Below, one piece after another: positions 2,129 through 41,105 of a stretch of DNA of 64,000 nucleotides. This stretch comes from an uncultured Actinomycetes bacterium. GTDB taxonomy: Bacteria > Actinomycetota > Thermoleophilia > Solirubrobacterales > 70-9. Both the position numbers and the translations under genes were made by a program. The stretch's first letter is position 1, and every line of letters starts with the position of its first letter. The notes beneath the pieces were generated by a model. That model was not told the DNA's origin. It did no database searches and saw only the letters and a program-made list of their open reading frames with translations. The stretch lies in assembly GCA_963763265.1 (NCBI GenBank), contig CAVXNN010000001.1, positions 184,949 through 248,948 on the forward strand, written 5' to 3'.

Positions 2129-3046
2129 TCAGAGCTCGGGAACGTCGACGCCGAGCGGCTCGAAGGGCAGCCGGCGAACGTCGGCCCAGCCCGCGGCACG
2201 CTCCTTGAGGGCCGCGGCGACGCGCCCCGCGTCGTCCCAGGTCGTCCAGACGAGGACGGTCGGGCCGGCGCCGGAGATCGTCGCCCCCAACGCGCCCAGC
2301 TCGCGGGCCGCGTCGACGATCGCCATCGAGCGCGGGTAGAGCTCGCGGCGGCGCGGCTGGTGGATCCGGTCGCGCAGGCCGCGGCCGACCAGGTCGAGGT
2401 CGGCGCTCCGCAGGCCCAGCACCAGGAGCGCGGCGGCGGAGACGTTGGCGACCGCGTCGGCCAGCGGCAGCTCGGCCGGGATCGCCTCCCGGGCACGCCG
2501 CGTCGAGACCTCCTCCCCCGGGATCACGACGATCCCCTCCAGCCCCTCCGGCGGATCGAAGCGCGCCGCGAACGGCCCGCCCCCCTCGACGCCTGTTACC
2601 CCATCGCTGACAAGCGTCGGGTCGGCGGGGGCGCAGACGACGAAGCCGCCGTAGATCGCGGCGGCCACGTTGTCGGGGTGGCCCTCGATCGCGGTGGCCC
2701 GGGCGAGCATCTCCTCGCGCGAGAGCGCCAGCTCGAAAAGGTGGTCGGCGGCAGCGAGGCCGGCGACGATCGCCGCGGCGCTCGACCCGAGGCCCCGGGC
2801 GAGCGGGATCTCGCTGCGCAGCCGGAAGGCGATCCCGTCGGCGGGGTGCAGCGACTCGAAGGCCCGCACGATCAGGTTGTCGCGCCCGGTCGGCACCTCG
2901 AGGCCGCCGGGGTCGAACGAGTACTCCCCCGCCTCTTCGACCTCCAGCTCCAGGTGGAGCGCCACCGCCGCCGCCATCGCGTCGTACCCCGGCCCGAGGT
3001 TGGCCGAGGAGGCGGGGACGCGGACGAGTCGGTGGCGCGCGGTCAT
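2129..3046 (-). CDS. thrB: homoserine kinase
   Basis: 305 aa with GHMP-kinase motifs VPASSANLGPGYD and GLGSSAAAIVAG. Lies in a thr cluster with thrC and hom. Confidence 0.9.
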   Translation of the reverse strand: MTARHRLVRVPASSANLGPGYDAMAAAVALHLELEVEEAGEYSFDPGGLEVPTGRDNLIVRAFESLHPADGIAFRLRSEIPLARGLGSSAAAIVAGLAAADHLFELALSREEMLARATAIEGHPDNVAAAIYGGFVVCAPADPTLVSDGVTGVEGGGPFAARFDPPEGLEGIVVIPGEEVSTRRAREAIPAELPLADAVANVSAAALLVLGLRSADLDLVGRGLRDRIHQPRRRELYPRSMAIVDAARELGALGATISGAGPTVLVWTTWDDAGRVAAALKERAAGWADVRRLPFEPLGVDVPEL

Positions 3047-4179
3047 CGCAGGAGATCCTCGCCGCCATTGTGTTGCAATTCGACGGCCCAGCGCGCCAAG
3101 AGCGGGTCAACCGGCTGCCAGCCCCCTTCGGCCTTGCGGATCTGTCCGCCCCGGGCCAGCGCTTCGCGCGCGTACCGGGCGCTGCTCTTGGACAGGTTGA
3201 ACCGGGTCAGCGTCCGCGCGGCGAAGAGCCCGGCGCCGCCCACCGCGAGCGCCGCGTAGACGGCCTGTTCTTTGGTCTCCAGGGAGTCCCAGGTCGCCCG
3301 CAGCGCCTCGTCCTGCTCGGCGAAGACCCGGGCGACGGTCCGCTGCCAGCACTCGGCGTCGGCCGTTCGCCCGGCCGGGGTCTGCTCCCAGAGCTGGTGG
3401 GCGAGGAGCATCGCCCGCTGGGGATGCCCGGCGGCCAGGTCGAGGAGCGGGTCGAGGGCCGCGCCCACCGCGCGGCGCGTCCTCTCGAACCGCTCGCCGA
3501 CGTATTCCGCGATGTCGGCGTCGGCGAGCGGCTCCAGCTCGAACGCTCGCGCCTGACCGAAGAAGGGGCGCTCCTGGCGGCCGAAGAACTGTGCCATCAG
3601 GCCGGGATGCGAGCCGGCGAAAACGTAGGAGGCGGCGTTCCCGTGGCGCTGGATGCGGCTGCGGAAGAGGCCATCGATGCCCGGGCCGACGGCGAGCAGC
3701 GCCTGGAACTCGTCGAAGGCCACGAGCGTCCGCCTGCCGGTCCGCTCGAAGAGGCGCAGCGGCAGGTCGAGCAGGCCCATCAGCAGGCGCTGGGCCCGCT
3801 CCTCGACCCGGGGACGCGACTCGACCCGCACCGGGCCGCCGCCGACGCTGAGACCCGGGCGAAGGGCGCGGATCGCCGACCTGGCCAGGTCCCCCGCCCT
3901 CGAGCGCAGGACCGCGTAGCCGTCTTCCAGGCGTTCGGCGACCTCGATCTCCGCGAGGACGCCGTAGAAGTCGACCTCGACGTAGTTGATCCCGATCTTC
4001 TCGGCGTCCCGGCCGATCCGGCGCAGCAGGCTGGTCTTCCCGTAGCGGCGCGGCGCCGAGAGGCGAACCGCGTGACCTCCCTCGGCGAGGTCGAGCAGCC
4101 GGCCGTACTCCGCGTCGCGGTCGATCAGATCCTCGGGCTCGACCGGCCGGGTGAAGACGAACGGATTCAGCGCTTCCAT
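3043..4179 (-). CDS. AAA-type ATP-binding protein (Arch_ATPase/DUF234-like)
   Basis: 378 aa with Walker A SAPRRYGKTSLL and a Walker B-like LVAFDEFQ. Its stop overlaps the thrB start by 4 nt. Confidence 0.65.
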   Translation of the reverse strand: MEALNPFVFTRPVEPEDLIDRDAEYGRLLDLAEGGHAVRLSAPRRYGKTSLLRRIGRDAEKIGINYVEVDFYGVLAEIEVAERLEDGYAVLRSRAGDLARSAIRALRPGLSVGGGPVRVESRPRVEERAQRLLMGLLDLPLRLFERTGRRTLVAFDEFQALLAVGPGIDGLFRSRIQRHGNAASYVFAGSHPGLMAQFFGRQERPFFGQARAFELEPLADADIAEYVGERFERTRRAVGAALDPLLDLAAGHPQRAMLLAHQLWEQTPAGRTADAECWQRTVARVFAEQDEALRATWDSLETKEQAVYAALAVGGAGLFAARTLTRFNLSKSSARYAREALARGGQIRKAEGGWQPVDPLLARWAVELQHNGGEDLLR

Positions 4180-28641: not shown

Positions 28642-28679
28642 AAAGCCCGCCGCCGGGATCGAACCGGCAACCTCCTGAT
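28642..28679. repeat. distal att site: displaced 3' fragment of tRNA-Thr (direct repeat copy 1)
   Basis: The exact 38-nt string AAAGCCCGCCGCCGGGATCGAACCGGCAACCTCCTGAT is also present at 41030-41067. No matching 5' tRNA half follows here. Confidence 0.85.
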
Positions 28680-30215: not shown

Positions 30216-30627
30216 GGCGGTTCCTTTCGCATTGACTTCTCGACTCCTTCCCCATCGCTGGGGTTTTTCGGCCAGCGGGACAGTCCCGTAGGCAGTGCTC
30301 AAACCGGGACCACTGCGCCTTTCGGAGCGGATTTTCCGTCCGCTCGACCCGGTGGTTTTTCGCTCTAGCAAGCGACAAACCGACCTCCCCGCGAGGTTGG
30401 CGCTTTCCGGGGGTCAGGCCAGACGAGGTGTAGCTCGCGTGGCAGTTCCCAAGGTAGCGCCTTCCAGGGTGTCTCAGTTGTCGTAGCTGCTCGAATCGCC
30501 GGAGATCCCGCGGTTGAGCGCCGAGCGGCATTCGTCGATGAGCAGGCCGGGTCGATCCTGCCGGCCGAGCGCTGTCAGCCCCACTGCCTCTCCCTGCTCT
30601 TTAACGGCGCCCGCCCAGCTCGGAGGG

Positions 30628-31815
30628 TCACTCAATCGGACCCCCTTGCGGACCTGCCGTTGCCTGCGCGCTGTCGCCAAGCGCATCATCGAAGAACTCG
30701 GCGCCCCCGATCCCCTCGTCGAGCAGGTGGATGTAGGTCGAGAGGGTGAAGGACGGATCGGCGTGGCCCAGCCACTCCGAGACCTGCTTTACGTTGCGGC
30801 CGTTCTCGAAGAGGAGCGATGCGCAGGTGTGCCGGAAGGTATGGAAGCTGACCCAGGGCGTCTCGACGCCATCTCGGTCGACCACCAAGCCTGCCGCCTT
30901 GGCGGCGGGGGCAACCACGCGGTTGGCGACGTTCGAGCGACGCAGTCCCTCGCCGGTCGCCGTGGTGAAAACCGGGCTCTTCTCCTCGGTGAAGTGGTCG
31001 CGCCGATGAACGCGGAGCCGATCGGCGAGGCTCGGCGACAACGGCAGATTGCGGCGGCCGCTCCTGGACTTGAGGCGCTGTCGCTTGCCTTCGTAGACCT
31101 GTTCGCGGACCAGGAGCCGCGGCGTGCGCCCGAGGTCGAGGTGCTCCCAGTTGACGCCGCAAGCCTCGCTGATCCGTAGACCGGTCTGGGTCAGGAATAG
31201 GAAGAAGAGTTCCCAGTCCTCGCCTACAGCCGACAGGAAGAGGCGCAGCTCCTCCTTGGTCAGCGCCTTGGCGGGCTCGTCCGTCTCGTCGGCTCTCGGT
31301 GCCGCCGGGATACGGACACCCGCGATCGGACTCGATCGCAATATGCCGTCCTCGACCGCCGTCGCGAACATCGCCGAGGTCGCCGCGCGTACCAGCCGAA
31401 GGACCGACGTCGAGATTCCGGCCTCGCGCAGCTTGCCGTAGAGGCGGCGGACATCGACGGGTTCGACCTCTCCGAGGCGCCAGGTCCCCCACTCAGGGAT
31501 CACCCGCTCCGAGATCGCCCGGCGGTAGAGACTGCGAGAACGGTCCGATAGCCCCTGCGAGGTCCGGCCCGCGTAGGTCTCGATCCACTCGGAGAAGTAG
31601 GCGTCGACCGTCACCTTCGACGCCGGCGGTCCATCGCCCGCGCGACGCTTGCCCTGCGCCTCTCGCGCCTCGGCGAGCGTCCTGAAGGTTTCCTTGTGCT
31701 GCTTGCCGCGGTGACGCCAGACGACCACGTAGGCGCAATCGCATCTGCCGCCCCCGCACTCCTTCGTGTGACGCCGGAAGATCCCCGGCGTCGAAGTCTT
31801 GGTCAGCTTCGCCAT
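30628..31815 (-). CDS. tyrosine-type site-specific recombinase/integrase
   Basis: Track ORF 30628..31839. The ATG at 31815 follows GAGGAGGG. It has an N-terminal SAM-like arm domain and a C-terminal catalytic region with TGLRISEA, HTFRHTCASLL and WLGHADPSFTLSTYIHLL (R...HxxR...Y). Confidence 0.9.
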   Translation of the reverse strand: MAKLTKTSTPGIFRRHTKECGGGRCDCAYVVVWRHRGKQHKETFRTLAEAREAQGKRRAGDGPPASKVTVDAYFSEWIETYAGRTSQGLSDRSRSLYRRAISERVIPEWGTWRLGEVEPVDVRRLYGKLREAGISTSVLRLVRAATSAMFATAVEDGILRSSPIAGVRIPAAPRADETDEPAKALTKEELRLFLSAVGEDWELFFLFLTQTGLRISEACGVNWEHLDLGRTPRLLVREQVYEGKRQRLKSRSGRRNLPLSPSLADRLRVHRRDHFTEEKSPVFTTATGEGLRRSNVANRVVAPAAKAAGLVVDRDGVETPWVSFHTFRHTCASLLFENGRNVKQVSEWLGHADPSFTLSTYIHLLDEGIGGAEFFDDALGDSAQATAGPQGGPIE

Positions 31816-32064
31816 GTCCTCATCCCTCCTCTTGATCATCGTCTACTTGCTGGCGGTTTCGAACGGAGCCCGATTCCCCACCCGCCCGACCGCGGCTTTG
31901 ACAACCGCAGAACCGCGCCCCCCGCAGCGGCCGGAACCCGAGCCGCAGGCGAGGGCCGTAAGGAGCCCCGGCGCGGCCGGGGCTTGAAGGCCGCGAGGAC
32001 GGCGCCACCATCGCGGGCGCCAAAGCCGCCTGCCACCGGGCTTGCGCAACCCGCGAAGCGCCTG

Positions 32065-32340
32065 TCAGGTCCGGATCCCGCCACCCTGCACCAGCCAACG
32101 GTCAAGCTCCGAGCGCCGGGCGATCAGCGCCGATCCGTCGTGGTGGACCGGGATGCGGCGAGCCGAGACGAGCGCGTAGACCCGCGAGCGCGGCGCGTCG
32201 ATGTAGGCGGCGATCTTGTCGGCGCCCCGCAGCCAGCCATCCGCCTCCTTGCGCTCGGCCCGCTCGCCGATCAGCTCGGCCGCGCGCTCGGCGATCTGCT
32301 CGATCAGCTCCTCGCCGATCTCCACGCGAAGCCCGGCCAT
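32065..32340 (-). CDS. excisionase-type HTH (HTH_17/MerR-like) DNA-binding protein
   Basis: 91 aa. DKIAAYIDAPRSRVYALVSARRIPVHHDGSALIARRSELDRWL fits the excisionase HTH pattern. It lies between the relaxase and the integrase. Confidence 0.7.
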   Translation of the reverse strand: MAGLRVEIGEELIEQIAERAAELIGERAERKEADGWLRGADKIAAYIDAPRSRVYALVSARRIPVHHDGSALIARRSELDRWLVQGGGIRT

Positions 32341-32354
32341 TCAGGGCCACCCCC

Positions 32355-35300
32355 TCACAACTCGATCTCCATCGCCCGCTCCCGCTCGATCCTCTGCACC
32401 CGTTCGATCCCGAGTTCCTGCCGCGCCCGCCTGACCGCCTGCTGCGCCCTCTCGCGCTCCTGCCGCGCCGCATGGTCGGTCGGCTCGGGTCCGAATGCGT
32501 GGCCCCGGTCCCGGATCCCGTGCCGCTGTCGGAAGTTCTCGACGTCGCGCACCGCGCCATCCCAGGCAGCCCGCTTCAGCCCCGCGTCGGGCCTGGGACC
32601 CAGCTCGGCGGCGATGTAGTCGGGCGCCGACACCCGCGCGGCGGCGAGCGCCAGATCACGGCGGCGGTCGAGGACGGTGTCGATCGCCGCAACCTCGGCG
32701 CGCGCGTCGTGGCTCACCGCGGGCAGCTCGGAGCGCTCGACCTCCTGGCGCCCGAGCTCCCGCAGGTTGCTCCGTTCGCGCCTCTCGATCCCGTCGAGGG
32801 CGTCCCGATATTCGCGTCTCGCCCGACCCCAGCGAGGTTCCCTGCCGAGCGCCTGACGCTCGGCCTCGACCTGGTCGAGGGCGAATTCGGCGGCCGCCGT
32901 CCGATGGTCGAGCGACTCGCGCCTACGTTCGGCCGTGCCCTCTGCGTTGGCCTCCGATGCGATCTCGGAGCGCAGCCTCACCAGCTCGGGCGAGGAAAGC
33001 GCGTCCAGGCGCGTGCGGAGCGCCTGGTCGTGGGCTGAGATCTGGGCGCCGTCGCGTTCGGCCGCCGCGGCGATGTGGGAGAGGTCTCCCCGGACGCCGG
33101 GGACCGGCGCGAACTCGGCCCGCTCGAGGTCGATCTCGGGCGTCGCGTAGAACCACGTCTCCCGACGGCTGCGCGAGGCCGCGACGTAGAGCTCCTGGCG
33201 GTCCATCGAGGGGTCGGCCATCACGTAGGCGCGGTCGACGGTGGAACCCTGCGCCTGGTAGGTGGTCGCGGCGTAGGCGTGCTGGAGCGCCGGCGATCCG
33301 TCGTTGGGGTTCTGCCGCGCGAGATAGTCGCCATCGACCACCACCCGCCTTTCTGAGTCGACGCCGACGAGCCCGACGCCGCGGCCCTCGGCGTCGATCG
33401 CCTCGACCCGCCAACGCTCGCGGTTGTGGACCTCCGCCCCGTGGTCGTTGACCCGGGTGATCACCTGATCGCCGACCGCGAAGCGGGCGTCGCCGACCTT
33501 GAACTCGACATCACCGAGCCGGCCTTCGGCCTTCATCACCTCGCGCGCCAGGGCATTCAGCCGCGCGACCTCGGCGTTGCGCTTCGCGATCATCAGCGCG
33601 TCCTCGCCTTCTGAGTAGGAGCGCCACCAGTCGCGCACCATCTCCTCGCGGCGGACCTCGGGATCGGGCGAGACCACCACGCGACCCTGGGAGCGATAGG
33701 CCTCGATCGCCTCGGCGCCCCTGCCCTCGCGGATCCGCCTCGCTCCCTCGCGGTCGAGGTCATGTTCGTGACGGATCACCTCGTCGAGGAAGACCGGATC
33801 GGTGCGGGCGACGAGCGAGCCGAAGAGGCCACCCGCCTCGATCTCGCCGAGCTGGGCCGGGTCGCCGATCAGGACCAGCTTGGCCTCGGCCTCGCGGGCA
33901 TGGTCGATCAGCCGCGCCAGCGTCGCCGAGTCGAGCATCCCGGCCTCGTCGACGATCAGGACCGAGCCATGCCTGAGCGGGCGGCCACGGCCGTCGAGCC
34001 GGGCCAGGAGCCGGGCGACGCTCACCGCGTCGAGGCCCTCCGAGCCTAGGACGTTGGCGGCGCGCCAGGTCGGTGCCGCCACCCGCAGGTCGACCCTGGA
34101 GGCGGCCCATGCCTCGGCTGCCGCGACGGTGGCGAAGGTCTTGCCGGTCCCCGCCTCGCCGACCACGAGGACGAGCTGCTCGCCGCCGCGGGTCAGCCAC
34201 TCGACCATCGCGCGCTGATCTGCCTTGATCGTCGAGCGGCTCGCGAGGACGCGGGAGACGACGATCGGGTCGGCGACCGCGAAGGCGCCGCTCGCGGCCA
34301 TCTCCTCCGCCGCCGCCAGCGCCCGACGCTCCAGCTCCCAGATCCGCTCGGTGGTGAAGCGGGGACCACGTGGAGTCTCGGCGATCCGGATCACCGAGGC
34401 CGAGGCGAGGAACTCGTCGGCGAGCCGCTCGACCTCGGCGGCGGGGGCGCCGTGGGGCAGGTTGTCGGCGACGGCGCGGATCGCGTCGCGACGGTCGAAG
34501 TGGGAGACGTGCTCGGTGACCGAGCGCTCGACCCTCTGCGCGCTGAGGACCGAGCGGCCGGGCCGCTCGTGGCCGAGACGCCGGGTGATCCTCTCGCGGT
34601 CGAGCCCGACTTCCTCGGCTTTTGCCCGCCATCCCTCGCGGAGGCTCTCCTCGGTCAGGTCGCGGTCCTTGGCCCTGCGCGTCTCCAGGGCGGCGACCTG
34701 CATCGCGCGGGCGGAGGCGCCCTCGCCGACCGCGGCGAGGATCTCGGCGCGGCGGGTGGAGAACTTCCGCAGCTCCTCGGAGGAGAAGCCGCGGATGTCG
34801 GCGATGCCCTTGACGACCGGCTCCCACTCGACGCCGAGGCGGATCGTCAGCTCGTGGCGAAGGTGGGCCTCGTAGAGGTAGCTCGCGGTCTTCGCGTGCT
34901 CGTAGATCGCCGGGTGGTAGAGCCGCGACCAACGGCCGTCGGGACCGAGGGTCGCGTTGGCGACGAGGACGTGGGTGTGGAGCTGGGGATCCCCGGTGCG
35001 GGAGGAGCGATGGACATAGGCGGCGGCGAGGAAGCCGTTGCCCGGCACGAAGGTTCTCCCGCCCTTGCCCCGTCGCGCCCAGCAGGCGGAGCGCTCCATG
35101 TAGGAGAGGGCGGCCTCAACGGCGGCGCGGTGGGCCTCCATCACCTGGCCGGAGATCGGGTGGCCGGCGAGCGCCCAAGTCAGCGATACCGACTTGGGCG
35201 CCGAGAAGGTGAGGTCGAAGCCGGGGACCGGCTCGCGCCCCGGTGCCGACCTGAGGCCGAGCGGCTCGCCCGTGGCCGGGTTGCGGCCGGTCAGCATCGC

Positions 35301-35471
35301 GGTCAGCGCGTCGGGCTCGACCTGGCCGGCAAGTCCGAGTTCGGCAGACGCGGAGCCGATCCACCGGCCCTCGGCCTCGCCACGGCCCGAGTAGTAGTCC
35401 TCGGCGCCTTCGGCGACCTTCTCGGTGTAGTAGCGCTCCTGGCCGGCGCCGAGCTTGCCGATCGAGAGCAT
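32355..35471 (-). CDS. MobF/TrwC-type relaxase fused to TraA-like helicase
   Basis: Track ORF 32355..35705. The relaxase fold begins at ATG 35471 (MLSIGKLGAGQERYYTEKVAEGAEDYY). His motif HRSSRTGDPQLHTHVLV and helicase Walker A VVGEAGTGKT are present. The C-terminal ~250 aa are a charged coiled coil. Confidence 0.9.
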   Translation of the reverse strand: MLSIGKLGAGQERYYTEKVAEGAEDYYSGRGEAEGRWIGSASAELGLAGQVEPDALTAMLTGRNPATGEPLGLRSAPGREPVPGFDLTFSAPKSVSLTWALAGHPISGQVMEAHRAAVEAALSYMERSACWARRGKGGRTFVPGNGFLAAAYVHRSSRTGDPQLHTHVLVANATLGPDGRWSRLYHPAIYEHAKTASYLYEAHLRHELTIRLGVEWEPVVKGIADIRGFSSEELRKFSTRRAEILAAVGEGASARAMQVAALETRRAKDRDLTEESLREGWRAKAEEVGLDRERITRRLGHERPGRSVLSAQRVERSVTEHVSHFDRRDAIRAVADNLPHGAPAAEVERLADEFLASASVIRIAETPRGPRFTTERIWELERRALAAAEEMAASGAFAVADPIVVSRVLASRSTIKADQRAMVEWLTRGGEQLVLVVGEAGTGKTFATVAAAEAWAASRVDLRVAAPTWRAANVLGSEGLDAVSVARLLARLDGRGRPLRHGSVLIVDEAGMLDSATLARLIDHAREAEAKLVLIGDPAQLGEIEAGGLFGSLVARTDPVFLDEVIRHEHDLDREGARRIREGRGAEAIEAYRSQGRVVVSPDPEVRREEMVRDWWRSYSEGEDALMIAKRNAEVARLNALAREVMKAEGRLGDVEFKVGDARFAVGDQVITRVNDHGAEVHNRERWRVEAIDAEGRGVGLVGVDSERRVVVDGDYLARQNPNDGSPALQHAYAATTYQAQGSTVDRAYVMADPSMDRQELYVAASRSRRETWFYATPEIDLERAEFAPVPGVRGDLSHIAAAAERDGAQISAHDQALRTRLDALSSPELVRLRSEIASEANAEGTAERRRESLDHRTAAAEFALDQVEAERQALGREPRWGRARREYRDALDGIERRERSNLRELGRQEVERSELPAVSHDARAEVAAIDTVLDRRRDLALAAARVSAPDYIAAELGPRPDAGLKRAAWDGAVRDVENFRQRHGIRDRGHAFGPEPTDHAARQERERAQQAVRRARQELGIERVQRIERERAMEIEL

Positions 35472-35862
35472 CAGCGGGGACGTCCGCCGGGAACGCTTGA
35501 TCCGTCGTGGGTCGGGGTCATGGGTCCACTGGCCTGCGAGCGGGGCTGTTGCACCGGGTGCATGGCGCCATTGGCCCGCGGGCGGGCCGTTTGCACCGGG
35601 TCGGCGGGAATTGCCACGGGCGGCGTGTTCGGCGGGGCCGGCCGGTGCATCCGCGGGCTTTCGTGGATGCGGATCGGCAGCCGGTTCCGTCGAGGGGATC
35701 ACCATCCGGTGATACGGCGTGAGGGGTTCTGCTGTTGTCGTTATGTGGGTGGTGGCTGTTGGCTTGGCTTGGTAGCTGTGGTCTGCTGGCTGGGCTTGCT
35801 GGCTGGCTTCTCGTTGCCTGCGACTTGGCTTGCCTGTTCGGCTCTCGCCTCTGCCTGTCTGG

Positions 35863-36180
35863 CTACTGGCTGCCTGCCTTTCTGAATCGATGTCTGGATG
35901 GCCTTGAGTTGAAGGTGAAGACCCCTTCGGTCTCGGGTGCCGGGACCCAGGCGATCCCGTCGAGCAGCTCTTCCGGCCGGACCGCCATCGCCCCGGACAG
36001 TCGGATCAACGTGTCGATCCGACAGGTCCGGCCGGAGCGCTCAAGGAGGCCGACCTCGGTGCGGTGCAGCCCGGCCCGTCCCGCGAGCTGGTCCTGGGAA
36101 AGCCCTTCCCGGCGGCGCACCCGACGAAGGTTCTCGGCGAATCGATCGGCGACGTCCTCGGAGGGCTGCCCCCTACCCAT
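35863..36180 (-). CDS. XRE-family HTH regulator, paralogue C
   Basis: 105 aa with LRRVRRREGLSQDQLAGRAGLHRTEVGLLERSGR...LLDGIAW. Its start overlaps the stop of paralogue B by 8 nt. Confidence 0.75.
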   Translation of the reverse strand: MGRGQPSEDVADRFAENLRRVRRREGLSQDQLAGRAGLHRTEVGLLERSGRTCRIDTLIRLSGAMAVRPEELLDGIAWVPAPETEGVFTFNSRPSRHRFRKAGSQ

Positions 36181-36460
36181 CGCGTCCGTTCTCCGGGGCG
36201 GTCACGACGAGGCCGCCGCCGAGCCACACGATCGGCTCCCAGACGATCCCGTCGAGGAGGTCGTCGGGGGTGGTGCCGAGGGCTCCCGCCAGACGGACGA
36301 GGGTGAGGACCCGCGGCATCCGCCCGCCGCCCTCCAGCAGGCTCACCTGGGTGCGGTGGATGGCCGCCCGGAAGGCGAGCTCTTCCTGGGTCAGGCCCGC
36401 GTCCGCACGCAGCCGGCGGAGGTTGGCGGCGAAGCGCCGCGACGGCCCGGGGGATCTCAA
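36173..36460 (-). CDS. XRE-family HTH regulator, paralogue B
   Basis: 95 aa with LRRLRADAGLTQEELAFRAAIHRTQVSLLEGGGR...LLDGIVW. There is a 4-nt overlap with paralogue A. Confidence 0.75.
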   Translation of the reverse strand: MRSPGPSRRFAANLRRLRADAGLTQEELAFRAAIHRTQVSLLEGGGRMPRVLTLVRLAGALGTTPDDLLDGIVWEPIVWLGGGLVVTAPENGRDG

Positions 36461-36744
36461 CCATCCGCGTCCCGCCCGGCCTCGACGATCCGGCCCGGCC
36501 TCCTGTCGCCCACCTCCCAGGCGATCCCGTCGAGGAGGACGCAGGGCAAGGCGCCGAGGCCGCCGGCGATCTTGATCACGGTGTCGATCCGCGGCAGCCG
36601 TTCGCCGTGCTCGATCAGGCTGACCTGGGTGCGGTGGATCTCGGCGTTGTGGGCGAGCGCCTCCTGGCTCATGTCGAGGCCGCGACGGATGCGCCTGATC
36701 CGCGGGCCGAGGATGCCGGCGACCTGCCTTGCCGAGGCGTCCAT
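36457..36744 (-). CDS. XRE-family HTH regulator, paralogue A
   Basis: 95 aa with IRRIRRGLDMSQEALAHNAEIHRTQVSLIEHGER...LLDGIAW. Its start overlaps the upstream stop as TGATG. Confidence 0.75.
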   Translation of the reverse strand: MDASARQVAGILGPRIRRIRRGLDMSQEALAHNAEIHRTQVSLIEHGERLPRIDTVIKIAGGLGALPCVLLDGIAWEVGDRRPGRIVEAGRDADG

Positions 36745-37079
36745 CAGCCGAGGATGAAGCCGAGCCCGACCATCTGGCGGGCCGGGCGGCTCGGGATGAG
36801 CAACTCGCCCTGGCGGACCACGAGCCCCGAGGCCATGAGCCCGTGGACGGCGCCGGAGAAGCGGTCGGCCTCGCCGAAGTCCTCGGGGTCCCCGGCCCTC
36901 GCGGTCAGCGCCTCGCGCCAGGTGAGGATGCCGGGGAACTCGGCGAGGAGCAGGTCGAGCAGGCCGCGCTGGTCCGCCTCGTAGACCTCCTGGGGGTCGC
37001 GCTCATGGCGGGAAGGGGGCGCGCCGGCGCCTCCCGAACTACATTGCGGGTGCATGGGAGCGAATACCTCCTGTGCCAT
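36744..37079 (-). CDS. hypothetical protein, first gene of the four-gene regulatory operon
   Basis: 111 aa. An alternative ATG at 37055 follows AGGAGG. The C-terminal AVHGLMASGLVVRQGELLIPSRPA looks like a small winged-helix-type recognition segment, but this is tentative. Confidence 0.5.
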   Translation of the reverse strand: MAQEVFAPMHPQCSSGGAGAPPSRHERDPQEVYEADQRGLLDLLLAEFPGILTWREALTARAGDPEDFGEADRFSGAVHGLMASGLVVRQGELLIPSRPARQMVGLGFILG

Positions 37080-37144
37080 GCCCCCGGCTGTTTGCGCAGC
37101 GCGGGGGCGCTTTTTGTCTGTAGATGGAAGGTAGCAGAGCTACA

Positions 37145-37166
37145 AGCCGACTTTTAGAAGTCGGCT
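37145..37166. promoter_or_regulatory. candidate operator palindrome in the divergent intergenic region
   Basis: AGCCGACTT-ttag-AAGTCGGCT has perfect 9-bp arms and is flanked by GCTACA at 37139-37144 and 37164-37169. It lies about 40 nt upstream of the plus-strand XRE gene. Confidence 0.35.
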
Positions 37167-37206
37167 ACATGGACGATCCACCAACAAGTTGAGAACTTAA
37201 AGTCTG

Positions 37207-37434
37207 ATGCCACCCTCGAATACCACTCCGCCGAGCCTCGGCAAGGCGATTCGGCAGCTTCGCGAGCGGGGCGGCATGACCCAAGAAGGACTTGCGCATG
37301 CTGCCGGGTCGACCGCCGCCACGATCAGCGCCATCGAGCGGGGAGTCTCGAATCCAAGTTGGGGAACGGTCGAAGCGATCGCCGGAGCGCTCGGAGTGAC
37401 GATGGTCGAGGTTGCTCGACTTGCCTCGCGTTGA
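37207..37434 (+). CDS. XRE-family HTH regulator (divergent from the four-gene operon)
   Basis: 75 aa with LGKAIRQLRERGGMTQEGLAHAAGSTAATISAIERGVSNPSWGTVEAIAGALG. Confidence 0.75.
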   Translation: MPPSNTTPPSLGKAIRQLRERGGMTQEGLAHAAGSTAATISAIERGVSNPSWGTVEAIAGALGVTMVEVARLASR

Positions 37435-37734
37435 CAAAACCACCCAGCTCCTCGCTGAGGGCAGGACGGTCGCCGGAGATTCTCGACGTCCCATGGCGGT
37501 GTAGGCGCCGCCTGAAAACTGACCCCCCCTCGCCGGTCGAAAACTGGGGTCTTGCTGAAAGAACGGGGATGAGGCCCGGATAGAGACATCCGCCGCCCCC
37601 CGAGGCTCTGCGTAGTTCGAAGAACGCGGAGCAAGGAGAACAGCGGATGCACGATCAAGTTAGCCGCGGGCGGCGGCGAGGAGCCACTCCTCGCCGGGAA
37701 CCCGCAGCGCTTGTTGTAGCGAGCCACGGGATGA

Positions 37735-39024
37735 TCAGGTCCCTCGGCCGGCAAGGTCATGGGGCCAGTGCCAAGGCTCCGGCTCCTCCCTGATTTGCTC
37801 GAGAAAACGTCGCGACCTCCGCGGCACGACGCCACACTTCTTTAACCCGGCTTCGCCCAATCGAGCGAATACGGTTCGCGGGTAGTCCGTTCTCTTGCGT
37901 CGCAGACACTTCTCAAGGTGGTCCCGAAGGGCCCAATACCCCTCCTGGGCCCCTTCGGCCTCGACCGTATGTGGTTCGTAGCCAGCATGCACGACCAAGT
38001 TCCGGACCCGGTAGAGGCTCTCCCAGTACTTGTTGACCGGGGTGCCCTTCGCCTTCACATCCCAGCGTCCACCGAGCTTCTGCGGCATGGTGGTGATCAA
38101 CAGCGACTTGAACGACCGCTCTCGCCCGAGCTCAACCGAGATATCGGAAGAGCAGCGCCCCTCATCGACCAAGATCATGCGGTAGGTGTCGAAGAGCAGG
38201 CTCTCCGCCGCAATCTGGAAGCTGATGATTGCGTCGGAGGCATCCCCTTCTTGGCGGAGCGCACGTTGCGCCCTTAACCTCCAGAGTTTGGACCCCAGAT
38301 AGGGCTGGTTGGTCTCGACCGCATAGATCCCGTCCTGCAACTGCTTCTCGGTGATCGGACCATGTGAGGAGGGCAACTCATCCGGTTCGGCCTCGGGATG
38401 CATGAGCATCGTGTTCAGAAAGTCCCAGGACCCATCACGCCTGCGAACCCCTAGCACCACGACCGGCCGCAGATCGTGCGAGCTGACGGGCCGGATGCGG
38501 ACGTCTTGAGTTGCCGCTTGTACGGCCCGGAGAAAGATGTTGAAGGCCATGAGACAACGGTGGAACGCGAACGCCGGATCGTCCCACTGAAGCTCTCCCT
38601 TGGTGGGAGCGGATGGAGTCTCCAAGGTCACCCACTGGTGATGGGTAGCAAGCTCCCCCTCGCCATATCGATCCTCAGGGTTACCGATGAAGTCGTGACC
38701 ATAGAAGTGAGCAAGTGCAGCGTGGGTGCCCGGCGGCCACATCGGCAGTCCGTCTTCCTCGAACGTGAAGACCCTGATGTCGATGGTCGGGAGCGGCCCA
38801 AACAGATCTTCATCCGCCGGATCGGCGAACGAGTCGTGGATGGCGATGGTATGGCCGAGCTTGTCCGGGATGCCAAGAGGGAACGACAATGCGGCAGTAA
38901 AAGTGTAGATACCGGGCTCCCCCAACTCGTCGGCGAACTGATCGCTCGGATGCCACATAGCGGGAAGGATAGGCAGGGGACCGGGCAAGATCAGCATCCT
39001 TCTGGTCGGATCGCCAAACCGCAT
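37735..39024 (-). CDS. hypothetical protein with C-terminal HEPN-like domain (Rx4H)
   Basis: 429 aa. The C-terminal helical region is DASDAIISFQIAAESLLFDTY ... YWESLYRVRNLVVHAGYEP, with R341-x4-H346 encoded at 38004-37987. No motif was recognised in the N-terminal ~250 aa. Codon usage is A/T-richer than in the core genes. Confidence 0.6.
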   Translation of the reverse strand: MRFGDPTRRMLILPGPLPILPAMWHPSDQFADELGEPGIYTFTAALSFPLGIPDKLGHTIAIHDSFADPADEDLFGPLPTIDIRVFTFEEDGLPMWPPGTHAALAHFYGHDFIGNPEDRYGEGELATHHQWVTLETPSAPTKGELQWDDPAFAFHRCLMAFNIFLRAVQAATQDVRIRPVSSHDLRPVVVLGVRRRDGSWDFLNTMLMHPEAEPDELPSSHGPITEKQLQDGIYAVETNQPYLGSKLWRLRAQRALRQEGDASDAIISFQIAAESLLFDTYRMILVDEGRCSSDISVELGRERSFKSLLITTMPQKLGGRWDVKAKGTPVNKYWESLYRVRNLVVHAGYEPHTVEAEGAQEGYWALRDHLEKCLRRKRTDYPRTVFARLGEAGLKKCGVVPRRSRRFLEQIREEPEPWHWPHDLAGRGT

Positions 39025-39086: not shown

Positions 39087-39845
39087 GTGAACTGCATGAA
39101 CGTTCTGCTGGCCGGAGCCCGCGTGGGCGATGCGGGCATCTCAGTGACCGAAGTCGTGACGCTTTTGGTGGCCTTGGCGGCGCTCGTTGTCGCCTTGACC
39201 TCGCTTTGGATCACCGCCCTCCGCCCCGCTCGGTTCAACCTGACCTTCATGCGCGAGCACACGAAGATAGGCACCAGCGGCAAGAACGAAGTGCCCAATA
39301 TCTGCTCCATCCGGGCGTTCATGGCCCTGACGAATTCGGGTGCAAGGGCGGGACTCCTGGAGCGAGTGGGCTGGGGTAGCCACTTCAAGGTGGAGGCCGA
39401 GGCAGCACTGATGTTCGCGGTCGGTCCCGTGCCCCCGGAGAATGGGACCCATGAGGAGATGGTACGGCTCGACGGCAAGGTGCTGAACTGGCCGATCACG
39501 ATCCAGGCGGGAGACGTGCGGGCGCTGGAACTCGACTTCGAGATGGGCGGCGAGCTCCGGCGAGCCAGAGACGGGGCGCGGAAGGACTTGAAGCCGATCG
39601 CTGAGCTGGTGGCGAAGCTTGAGCGCGTCTCGATCGATGTCCACCTGATCTACCGATCGGGCAGTGCATCGCCTCGTTGGCTCGGCTACTTCTTCCGTCA
39701 GCGGACGGAGATCGGCAACTTCTATATCTACGGCGCAGAACTTAGGCGGACGGCGTCGGGGTATTGGTCGAGCATCGGTCGTGAGGACCTAGCCAAGATC
39801 GTCGACGATAGTTTCACCGGTCGTGACATCGACAAGATGTTTTAG
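39087..39845 (+). CDS. hypothetical single-pass membrane protein
   Basis: 252 aa. The GTG at 39087 lies 5 nt after GGGAGGAA; an alternative ATG is at 39096. One TM helix (VVTLLVALAALVVALTSLWITAL) and no recognised domain. It is divergent from the HEPN-like gene across 62 bp. Confidence 0.55.
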   Translation: MNCMNVLLAGARVGDAGISVTEVVTLLVALAALVVALTSLWITALRPARFNLTFMREHTKIGTSGKNEVPNICSIRAFMALTNSGARAGLLERVGWGSHFKVEAEAALMFAVGPVPPENGTHEEMVRLDGKVLNWPITIQAGDVRALELDFEMGGELRRARDGARKDLKPIAELVAKLERVSIDVHLIYRSGSASPRWLGYFFRQRTEIGNFYIYGAELRRTASGYWSSIGREDLAKIVDDSFTGRDIDKMF

Positions 39846-40338: not shown

Positions 40339-40626
40339 ATGCCTAACGCGCGACTCATCCGCGATCCACAGGGAAGGGACGTCTTGCTGGACGTCGAGCG
40401 CTGGGGGCACATCGTCGACGGGCATCCGGAGTTGGGCCACATGCAGGAGGAGGTCCTGCGCGCCGTGGAATCGCCGACCGAGGTCATGGCGGGGCGAATG
40501 TCCGATGAAGAGTGGTTCTACCTGGAGGGAGCCGGTCCGAGTCGCTGGCTCAAGGTCGTCGTGGTCTTCGACCGGAAAGGCAGCGGGCGTATCATCACTG
40601 CATTCGGACGACGAAGGAAGCCATGA
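40339..40626 (+). CDS. small toxin-like protein, partner of the DUF2283 gene
   Basis: 95 aa with ERWGHIVDGHPELGHMQEEVL...WLKVVVVFDRKGSGRIITAFGRRRKP. The stop overlaps the next start as ATGA. The family assignment (DUF4258-like) is not certain. Confidence 0.55.
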   Translation: MPNARLIRDPQGRDVLLDVERWGHIVDGHPELGHMQEEVLRAVESPTEVMAGRMSDEEWFYLEGAGPSRWLKVVVVFDRKGSGRIITAFGRRRKP

Positions 40627-40898: not shown

Positions 40899-41029
40899 CG
40901 CGTATTTGCGGCCGTCGACTCGGCGGCGCGCTTCCCCGTATCTCTGCGCCCTGTTGCCCTGGGCGTTGCCCCAGCAGATGAGAGCCCGCCACCTTTGCAG
41001 ATGATTTGGCTCTGTGACGCCACTTCGCA

Positions 41030-41067
41030 AAGCCCGCCGCCGGGATCGAACCGGCAACCTCCTGATT
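41030..41067. repeat. proximal att site within tRNA-Thr (direct repeat copy 2)
   Basis: Identical 38 nt to 28642-28679. It covers the tRNA from anticodon-loop position 38 to the 3' end, plus 2 nt. Confidence 0.85.
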
Positions 41068-41105
41068 ACAAGTCAGGTGCTCTCCCAGGTTGAGCTAGGC
41101 GGGCG
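41032..41105 (-). tRNA. tRNA-Thr (anticodon UGU)
   Basis: Hand-folded cloverleaf: GCCCGCC TA GCTC AACCTGGGA GAGC A CCTGA CTTGTAA TCAGG AGGTT GCCGG TTCGATC CCGGC GGCGGGC T. It is 74 nt long and no CCA is encoded. Confidence 0.9.

Follow-up and report, generated by a model that had tools for sequence, protein, structure and literature searches.

The regulatory region described here lies in an uncultured actinomycete of the order Solirubrobacterales, within a 64,000-nt stretch of contig CAVXNN010000001.1 (GenBank assembly GCA_963763265.1), hereafter the window, to which all coordinates refer. It belongs to what is best described as a 12.4-kb integrative mobilizable element inserted at tRNA-Thr. 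On the minus strand, a small gene (ORF103) is followed by three overlapping genes for small regulators of the XRE family (XRE-A, XRE-B and XRE-C), which read toward genes for a relaxase, an excisionase-like protein (xis) and an integrase (int), and a fourth XRE gene (XRE-D) faces them across a spacer that holds a perfect palindrome. Comparison with related elements indicates that XRE-A, XRE-B and XRE-C are old, individually maintained and co-translated functional paralogues, and the palindrome varies together with the regulator encoded upstream of the operon. We tentatively favor, with slightly less than even confidence, a two-layer model in which an exchangeable switch made of XRE-D and the palindrome acts alongside a conserved set made of ORF103, XRE-A, XRE-B and XRE-C to control relaxase, xis and int.

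Organization of the XRE array

A preliminary description of the window had placed four open reading frames (ORFs) in series on the minus strand and one XRE gene on the plus strand, and the ORF list and the sequence bear out these coordinates. The minus-strand series consists of a leading ORF listed at 36744-37079 (ORF111), XRE-A at 36457-36744, XRE-B at 36173-36460, which has a TTG start, and XRE-C, the last gene of the array, at 35863-36180. XRE-D, the candidate divergent repressor and a partner that varies among relatives, is encoded at 37207-37434 on the plus strand. In DNA with a GC content of about 70%, the GC content at third codon positions (GC3) served as the coding test for these ORFs. 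Because GC3 lies between 0.80 and 0.94 for the four minus-strand genes (ORF111, 0.91; XRE-A, 0.94; XRE-B, 0.93; XRE-C, 0.80), they are regarded as real coding sequence; GC3 of XRE-D is only 0.67. All four XRE proteins match the Pfam helix-turn-helix (HTH) domain HTH_3 (PF01381) above its gathering cut-off of 23 bits, with scores of 43 for XRE-A, 44.7 for XRE-B, 33.6 for XRE-C and 55.8 for XRE-D, the last of which matches HTH_31 and HTH_3 with E = 2e-15. Local pairwise protein identity is 55% between XRE-A and XRE-B, 57% between XRE-B and XRE-C and 44% between XRE-A and XRE-C (about 68% at the DNA level), in line with the earlier estimate that the proteins are roughly half identical. The stop/start overlaps of 1 nt (TGATG at 36744), 4 nt (36457-36460) and 8 nt (36173-36180) are likewise as first reported, and the operon does read toward the relaxase, excisionase and integrase genes.

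The leading small ORF stands in series with XRE-A, XRE-B and XRE-C as described, and its length of 111 codons does not hold. Because most homologues are 103 amino acids (aa) long and the upstream ATG is out of frame in the related loci L002 and L003, the start is placed at Met9 (37055, MHPQ...) and the gene is renamed ORF103 (36744..37055, minus strand). The upstream ATG was also rejected as the beginning of a small upstream ORF, being out of frame in the same two loci. With ORF103 starting at 37055, the spacer to XRE-D measures 151 bp, instead of the 127 bp given previously, and the divergent arrangement itself stands. The junction between XRE-A and XRE-B is atypical in the window: in orthologues, XRE-B begins with an ATG that gives an 8-nt overlap with the end of XRE-A, and the corresponding ATG (36464, MVEIPR...) is here one base out of frame inside a C5G3 run (36447-36455), so that the XRE-B frame is open only from the TTG at 36460. 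This start is either a frameshift rescued by the TTG or a homopolymer sequencing error.

Conservation and ancestry of the array

About 60 related loci were gathered through ORF103 homologues, a DNA scan with a conserved sequence named Box 2 (described below) and an XRE-C profile. All but a few derive from metagenome-assembled genomes (MAGs) of Solirubrobacterales type or of unclassified actinomycetes; the close relatives stem nearly all from soil metagenomes and from MAGs of uncultured Solirubrobacterales or of actinomycetes without closer classification, and a scan of metagenome contigs with ORF103 yielded three loci only. The recurring order is ORF103, the XRE genes, then the relaxase gene where present, xis and int. 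The preliminary description had proposed a search for the same gene order in related elements, and the complete series ORF103-A-B-C-relaxase-xis-int was found in L001, L013, L016, L063, L065, L067 and L070. The number of XRE genes per array ranges from one to four across the collection: one in a sister clade (L022, L024, L028-L031, L040 and L056), two in L009, L015, L020, L068, L069, L071, L076 and L079, three in the window and in L001, L008, L013, L016, L063, L065, L067 and L070, and four in L003, L011, L012 and L017.

The XRE proteins cluster by position in the array, with type A first, type B second, a distinct type D' third in four-gene arrays, and type C last in every array possessing it; the single XRE protein of the sister clade is nearest to type C. 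Identity is 0.62-0.71 within types and 0.38-0.41 between them. The median ratio of nonsynonymous to synonymous substitution rates (dN/dS) among orthologues is about 0.36 for type A, 0.39 for type B and 0.40 for type C, as expected of purifying selection on all three types, and the 8-nt overlaps between XRE genes are kept in relatives. Because the types cluster by position, dN/dS is about 0.4 and the overlaps are conserved, the three genes appear as old, maintained and co-translated paralogues, and the same evidence excludes the scenario of recent pseudogenised duplicates that had been named as a possible refutation. These comparisons support two earlier proposals, namely that the paralogues are functional and co-expressed through their overlapping genes and that they form a regulatory module of an integrative element.

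A simpler form of the cassette occurs in L061 and L062, where the leader (described below) and a small protein gene precede one XRE gene, then (xis) and int, without a relaxase gene. In L062, which has one winged-helix gene and one XRE gene, the XRE gene overlaps int. Since the XRE gene of this relaxase-less cassette stands directly before (xis) and int, and overlaps int in L062, the XRE proteins are tied to the control of the integration and excision genes. In L061 (41-630), the winged-helix gene is present as a tandem duplicate (97 and 99 aa) before the single XRE gene, xis and int. The triplication seen in the window appears, on sequence comparison, to be a lineage-specific expansion of an ancestral single-XRE cassette. 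The ancestral unit would have comprised a small repressor and its palindrome, the leader, a small protein, one XRE protein and then (xis) and int; in one branch, a relaxase gene and Box 2 appear to have been placed between the XRE gene and xis, and the XRE gene to have expanded to two to four ordered paralogues. A single MAG (assembly GCA_037025745.1) harbors three related elements, L013, L015 and L017, with three, two and four XRE genes, respectively, and L015 lacks a relaxase gene; cross-talk or mobilization in trans between these co-resident elements is plausible.

An exchangeable upstream regulator and a co-varying palindrome

The spacer between ORF103 and XRE-D contains, as stated previously, a perfect palindrome at 37145-37166 (AGCCGACTT-N4-AAGTCGGCT, two 9-nt arms around a 4-nt loop), which lies over the -35 region of the operon promoter and is the probable operator of XRE-D. 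The palindrome is unique in the window even when three mismatches are allowed. When the spacer was shuffled 20,000 times, a perfect 9-bp inverted repeat with a loop of at most 10 nt appeared in 78 cases, so that a chance origin is improbable for a spacer of this length. In the whole window, 31 of these repeats occur, and the position of the palindrome therefore counts more than its existence. The GCTACA direct repeats reported to flank it do exist; they are only 6 nt long, one of them overlaps a palindrome arm, and they are not conserved in relatives. A -10-like hexamer, TACCTT (TAnnnT), is present at 37128..37133 on the minus strand as part of the putative operon promoter, and all aligned loci keep a hexamer of the form TA(G/C)(C/T)(C/T)T at this position; transcription is predicted to start near 37121-37126. 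Directly upstream of the hexamer, each locus has a palindrome, the sequence of which varies among loci.

The gene upstream of the operon is exchanged among relatives. A divergent gene of XRE-D type is found in the window and in L015, L016 and L017, and the divergent layout also occurs in a sub-branch of arrays with types A and C (L068, L069, L071, L076 and L079). In L001, L002, L003, L008-L014 and L018-L021, XRE-D is replaced by a co-directional gene for an HTH protein of 65-66 aa, and the downstream operon is the same. The promoter palindromes co-vary with the recognition helix of this upstream regulator. Regulators with the helix HKSRVGQIIEGK accompany the palindrome GCCTAG-N5-CTAGGC, those with DHSR.RQIIRGE accompany GTGGAGAA..TTCTCCAC, those with H(R/L)SR.GQI.EGK accompany CTAGA-N3-TCTAG, and those of XRE-D type with TV(A/S)HLS.IEGG (L016 and L017) accompany palindromes resembling ACTTGT..ACAAGT. 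The recognition helices of the array proteins remain near-constant within each type (HRTQ.S in A and B, HRTE.G in C) despite these differing palindromes. Because the palindrome co-varies with the upstream regulator while the helices of the array proteins stay constant, it is provisionally assigned to XRE-D, and the earlier idea that the three paralogues act on the spacer palindrome is not upheld. Judging from this co-variation, XRE-D probably binds the palindrome over the -35 region and represses the operon, forming an exchangeable, element-specific switch. The simplest reading of the constant helices is that XRE-A, XRE-B and XRE-C recognize some other, conserved DNA.

A structured leader upstream of ORF103

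Upstream of ORF103, a structured 5' leader (37053..37120, minus strand) recognized by conservation and covariation comprises an 11-bp GC hairpin and a small GGAG/CUCC hairpin ending at the ATG, which in the predicted fold includes the Shine-Dalgarno sequence. In all close loci, hardly any change is seen in the 68 nt that precede the ORF103 start codon. The leader is also kept in L004-L006, where the encoded protein is only about 37% identical, and in L068, L072, L075 and L076, whose first gene encodes an unrelated helical protein beginning with MADQNP. A covariance model detects the leader in 46 loci, comprising the window (92.6 bits) and 45 related ones. The corresponding alignment, which is model-fitted and thus leans toward the structure, contains double-sided changes in 13 of the 15 pairs and has a covariation score of 0.285, against 0.112 for shuffles and at most 0.065 for slid controls; an independent MAFFT alignment shows two compensated pairs and 100% pairing. 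A search of Rfam 15 gave no match at E <= 1 in 35300-37700, and the leader is thus put forward as a candidate for a new cis-regulatory RNA motif.

The first eight codons of ORF103 (37032-37055), CACCCGCAATGTAGTTCGGGAGG, are nearly nucleotide-invariant across the clade though they encode a disordered tail, and the leader structure may extend into the coding region. Elsewhere in the window, a weak leader-like match to the covariance model at 30372-30441 on the plus strand (21.7 bits, E of about 0.002) has no gene behind it and is probably a chance match or a relic. Read on the plus strand, the leader presents a hairpin and GCTTTTTGTCT, which resemble the inverted repeat IR2 and GTCT of plasmid R388. 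The hairpin was rejected as the main origin of transfer (oriT) because in 46 loci, relaxase-less ones among them, it follows the conserved -10 element and runs up to the first start codon of the operon, and because Box 2, not this hairpin, tracks the genes for TrwC-family relaxases. As an intrinsic terminator it was rejected since its T-run is on the wrong strand for any gene.

ORF103 as a stand-alone winged-helix protein

ORF103 has no sequence match in Pfam, NCBIfam, PADLOC, PHROGs or the Protein Data Bank (PDB), and no relatives in annotated plasmids and phages. Its relatives comprise 65 close homologues and, by exhaustive profile search, 122 diverse small proteins. An AlphaFold2 model built on a 78-sequence alignment reached a predicted local distance difference test score (pLDDT) of 86, superseding a poor model from a shallow alignment (pLDDT 59). 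In the predicted structure, some 20 disordered residues at the N terminus precede a helix-helix-helix-wing-helix arrangement. Foldseek returned only generic winged helices for this model (MepR and OhrR of MarR type, GntR, IclR, RuvB and O-methyltransferase domains), with E >= 0.015 and a template modeling (TM) score of about 0.5. The predicted fold places ORF103 in a new family of stand-alone winged-helix proteins, which probably bind nucleic acid. Distant relatives sit directly before xis and int, without a relaxase gene. An adjacent toxin gene, as in type II toxin-antitoxin systems of the HipB, HigA or MqsA type, was not found: the sole coupled non-XRE partner of the array is ORF103, which has no toxin-family match.

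The AGCCAG-rich tract and a candidate origin of transfer

XRE-C is followed by a T-poor tract (35738..35862, minus strand; 37% A, 2% T) that is rich in AGCCAG, CAGCCA and CAGGCA. Across nine loci, the tract after XRE-C measures 105-130 nt with 2-6% T and 35-44% A, its composition being kept and its sequence not. AGCCAG occurs 15 times in the tract of the window against 0.8 expected (z of about 16), and tract motifs reach z values of 10-16 across loci, the enrichment being measured against mononucleotide shuffles only. A role of the tract as a Rho loading site was rejected, since only some of the loci have more C than G.

The tract ends in an invariant box, CAACAGCAGAACCCCTCACGC.(C/G)TATCAC(C/T), which is followed by a short inverted repeat. 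In the window, this box (Box 2, AACAGCAGAACCCCTCACGC, 35717..35736, minus strand), a candidate nick (nic) region of an oriT, is unique, and it is invariant after XRE-C in relatives. The inverted repeat, ATCACC-N4-GGTGAT at 35698..35713, was read from the sequence and is a candidate relaxase-binding hairpin. Together with a short hairpin, the box (invariant as AACAGCAGAACCCCTCAC) lies upstream of TrwC genes in Solirubrobacterales-type genomes; its 18-mer core is found at this place in about 28 actinobacterial loci (L022-L060), several of them without an XRE array nearby. Box 2 persists in the relaxase-less relatives L015, L027, L069 and L071; the inverted repeat is retained, its loop varying, in loci where a relaxase gene comes next, and is degenerate or lost in those that lack this gene or have an insertion. 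In L024 (about 2255-3700) and L049 (from about 6585 onward), an insertion sequence of the IS110 family with the end GGATGAAAGTCAAGTTCTCG lies exactly at the expected site of the Box 2 hairpin, which suggests hairpin-targeted insertion by this element.

Read along the plus strand, the inverted repeat comes first, then Box 2 and then the tract, and the relaxase gene lies on the side of the repeat. Origins of the MOBF relaxase family are laid out as IR2 followed by nic (PMC4176350), and the region has the corresponding features, an inverted repeat 5' of a conserved box beside the relaxase gene. The sequence GGCGTGAGGGGTTCTGCTGTT only loosely resembles the nic cores of F and R388, and a GTGT/GTCT core is not clearly recognizable. 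The Box 2 region had no meaningful match in the plasmid collection (phages were not searched), and literature searches retrieved no actinobacterial MOBF nic sequence. Because of its association with TrwC genes and the MOBF-like order of repeat and box, Box 2 is the best oriT candidate of the element.

The host element

An exact direct repeat of 38 nt marks the attachment (att) sites, the left copy at 28642..28679 and the right copy at 41029-41066, formed by the 3' 38 nt of tRNA-Thr(TGT) (41031-41104, minus strand; ARAGORN). Between them, the minus strand encodes a tyrosine integrase at 30628..31839 (Pfam Phage_integrase, E = 4e-21), a small xis-like protein at 32065..32340 with a weak match to Pfam HTH_17, and a TrwC/MOBF relaxase-helicase at 32355..35471 (Pfam TrwC, E = 1.3e-84, plus AAA_30). 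The xis-like gene also adjoins the relaxase gene in L001 and L003, at 87-90% identity. The relaxase ORF was called from 35705; because the composition of the first 78 codons (35472-35705) is that of non-coding DNA (GC3 0.68, against 0.72 at second codon positions, GC2) and orthologues begin at MLSIGK, the start is placed at 35471 (MLSIGKL), which leaves 391 nt of non-coding DNA after XRE-C. The ORFs scanned between the att sites gave no type IV secretion system, coupling-protein, FtsK or TraG-like match, a result that does not extend to small ORFs without annotation. Therefore, from the att repeats, tRNA-Thr, integrase, xis-like gene and relaxase, without a mating-pore or coupling-protein gene detected, the element is described as integrative and mobilizable. 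The element ORFs scanned likewise contain no restriction or methylase domain, and the Pfam scan showed no ImmA-like protease or LexA-like cleavage domain.

The remaining ORFs include a few genes without a family match. In a stretch of lower GC content (0.61), cargo genes are located at 37735-39024 (minus strand), 39087-39845 and 40339-40626 (both plus strand). The 429-aa and 252-aa proteins have no match in Pfam, NCBIfam, PADLOC or PHROGs, and the 95-aa protein has a weak PBECR2 nuclease-like match (E = 0.002).

A proposed two-layer model and its alternatives

In the first layer of the proposed model, XRE-D would keep the operon off by binding the palindrome that covers the -35 region of its leftward promoter. 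The second layer would be the operon itself, which opens with the structured leader, followed by ORF103 and the position-specific XRE-A, XRE-B and XRE-C. The overlapping genes probably fix the relative amounts of the four proteins, so that derepression would lead to four small DNA-binding proteins being made together. These may work as a set on conserved element DNA, bound next to each other or joined in a hetero-oligomer, with the leader-proximal region and the AGCCAG-rich tract beside the oriT-like box as candidate targets. The output would be control over when and how strongly relaxase, xis and int are expressed, much as for an autoregulatory controller protein.

Several observations weigh against this model. 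A repeated operator with clear dyad symmetry for XRE-A, XRE-B and XRE-C was not found, the enrichment of AGCCAG could reflect composition or a role at the RNA level, and the number of AGCCA-type motifs does not follow the XRE copy number. The start of XRE-B is disturbed in the window, and the likeness of the array to controller proteins is that of generic XRE proteins, below the NCBIfam family cut-offs. Moreover, promoter and terminator predictions speak neither for nor against transcription that continues from XRE-C over the 391-nt gap into the relaxase gene.

A doubtful alternative assigns the array and ORF103 an architectural role, as accessory proteins that coat the AGCCAG tract, and possibly attP, and help the relaxase or Int/Xis assembly, comparable to TrwA/TraY or Cox/Apl. 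Known MOBF accessory proteins are, to our knowledge, of the ribbon-helix-helix (RHH) type and not XRE proteins, which counts against such a role. In its favor, sister-clade loci carry an RHH gene at the equivalent place. The position of XRE-C, always last and, in the clade of the window, abutting the T-poor tract and Box 2, agrees with this reading, as does the finding of Box 2 and the inverted repeat ahead of TrwC genes at about 28 loci. The layout follows the IR2-nic rule of MOBF origins (PMC4176350): on the strand opposite to that of the relaxase gene, the box has the inverted repeat on its 5' side. However, arrays also occur without TrwC or Box 2 nearby (L011, L012 and L075-L079), the ancestral cassette stands directly before int without a relaxase gene, and the motif count does not track the XRE copy number.

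XRE proteins often form CI/Cro-type switches, and the preliminary description had proposed one between XRE-D and the operon, with the three paralogues as hetero-oligomeric or hierarchical repressors, or as decoys, on the spacer palindrome. The window does present divergent regulator genes that share an operator region (XRE-D on the plus strand, the operon on the minus strand, 151 bp apart) with a perfect palindrome between them, and the layout recurs in L015, L016, L017 and the sub-branch with types A and C. A bistable switch of this kind is nonetheless unlikely, since in most relatives the 65-66-aa co-directional HTH gene stands in place of XRE-D before the same operon, the palindromes vary among loci and the recognition helices of the array proteins do not, and the window holds a single copy of the palindrome. 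The divergent pair is thus not a conserved unit, and the CI/Cro interpretation is disfavored.

A more elaborate proposal, to which we give little weight, is that ORF103 and two to four XRE proteins form a multi-HTH hetero-oligomer of fixed stoichiometry that organizes the AGCCAG tract beside a new MOBF-type oriT, with copy number setting the length of DNA read and the leader RNA gating the operon itself, or that they are leading-region factors reprogramming the recipient on entry. In a related and quite improbable version, the array consists of early genes of the leading region that establish the element or misregulate host defense, for instance by mimicking the controller proteins of restriction-modification (R-M) systems. 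Leading-region genes are oriented with the transferred strand as template, and relaxosome genes are on the lagging side (PMC11541004). If nic were Box 2 on the plus strand, the tract, XRE-C, XRE-B, XRE-A and ORF103 would enter the recipient first, with the transferred strand as template; the relaxase gene lies on the inverted-repeat side and the array on the other side, transcribed toward the box, and controller-protein models are the best defined matches of the array. Both the oriT assignment and the nicked strand on which this reading depends are themselves conjectural, related cassettes exist in elements without a relaxase gene or Box 2, the promoter of the operon is of the ordinary kind controlled by a repressor, no Frpo-like structure was found, and the similarity to controller proteins is generic.

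Finally, a triplication without joint function, in the form of redundant or decaying duplicates or a toxin-antitoxin-like addiction pair, is hardly credible: the disturbed XRE-B start, the frameshifted copies in L003 and L020 and the copy number of one to four would fit it, but dN/dS is about 0.4 for all types, orthology is positional, the 8-nt overlaps are conserved, no toxin-like domain is present, ORF103 is predicted to be a winged helix, and the relaxase gene of the L003 MAG also has frame breaks, which suggests sequencing error.

Comparison with known systems and significance

What is known of how integrative and mobilizable elements are regulated comes from a few models in Firmicutes and Proteobacteria, which employ one or two XRE repressors. 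The elements compared here, from an abundant uncultured lineage of soil actinobacteria, have a modular control region composed of an exchangeable, specificity-determining repressor and operator, a conserved leader and an expandable XRE array of fixed order. If the paralogues work as a set, they would offer a natural case of longer or composite DNA recognition by the addition of HTH subunits; should the array prove to consist of ordinary autoregulators, a widespread family of elements would still have gained a useful annotation. By-products of the analysis that lend themselves to testing are a candidate cis-regulatory RNA motif (46 loci), an oriT candidate for one clade of TrwC relaxases and a new family of stand-alone winged-helix proteins.

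The closest defined sequence matches of XRE-B and XRE-C are R-M controller (C) proteins, small XRE proteins that are autoregulatory and set the timing of gene expression upon arrival in a new cell. XRE-C matches the PADLOC model Control_protein (E = 1.5e-14), and XRE-B matches C.BclI and C.AhdI in the PDB (2b5a and 1y7y); the NCBIfam and PDB matches of the XRE proteins are generic and fall below cut-offs. Unlike R-M systems, the element has no restriction or methylase genes among the ORFs scanned and no C-box-like tandem dyads were found upstream; moreover, each XRE protein of the array has an extra C-terminal tail (LLDGI.W.P...G.F), and three paralogues stand in series in place of one gene. 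SinR and SlrR of Bacillus subtilis form a hetero-complex of paralogous XRE proteins with changed specificity, and serve here as a lead only, since their genes are neither tandem nor overlapping and their helical-hook oligomerization domain is unrelated. The P2 Cox and 186 Apl proteins are small HTH repressor/excisionases that are co-expressed with integration functions and bind short direct-repeat arrays, which makes them a lead for the AGCCAG tract; they differ in having no sequence relationship, and the window has, besides the array, an HTH_17 xis-like gene of its own.

In the case of MOBF origins (R388 IR2 and nic; TrwA and TraY), the likeness lies in a short hairpin 5' of a conserved box by a TrwC-family gene, with small DNA-binding proteins encoded beside it (PMC4176350). 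In contrast, the box matches no known plasmid origin, the GTGT/GTCT core is not clearly present, and the neighboring proteins are XRE and winged-helix proteins and not RHH proteins. Switches of the CI/Cro and ImmR/SetR types resemble the region in that a small XRE repressor (here XRE-D) faces a transfer or excision operon with a palindromic operator over the promoter. They differ in that the divergent partner is here exchangeable for a co-directional 65-66-aa HTH gene, and in that the operon starts with a winged-helix protein and one to four XRE proteins that do not track the operator. The preliminary description had not recognized the layout as a described one, and we too found none in literature searches or in annotated plasmids and phages; the literature searches yielded nothing on tandem XRE arrays or XRE relaxosome accessory proteins. 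Mobile-element operons headed by XRE regulators are common. The unusual features here are a winged-helix gene followed by as many as four old XRE paralogues, conserved in their order and translationally coupled, an exchangeable upstream repressor and operator, and an undescribed structured leader.

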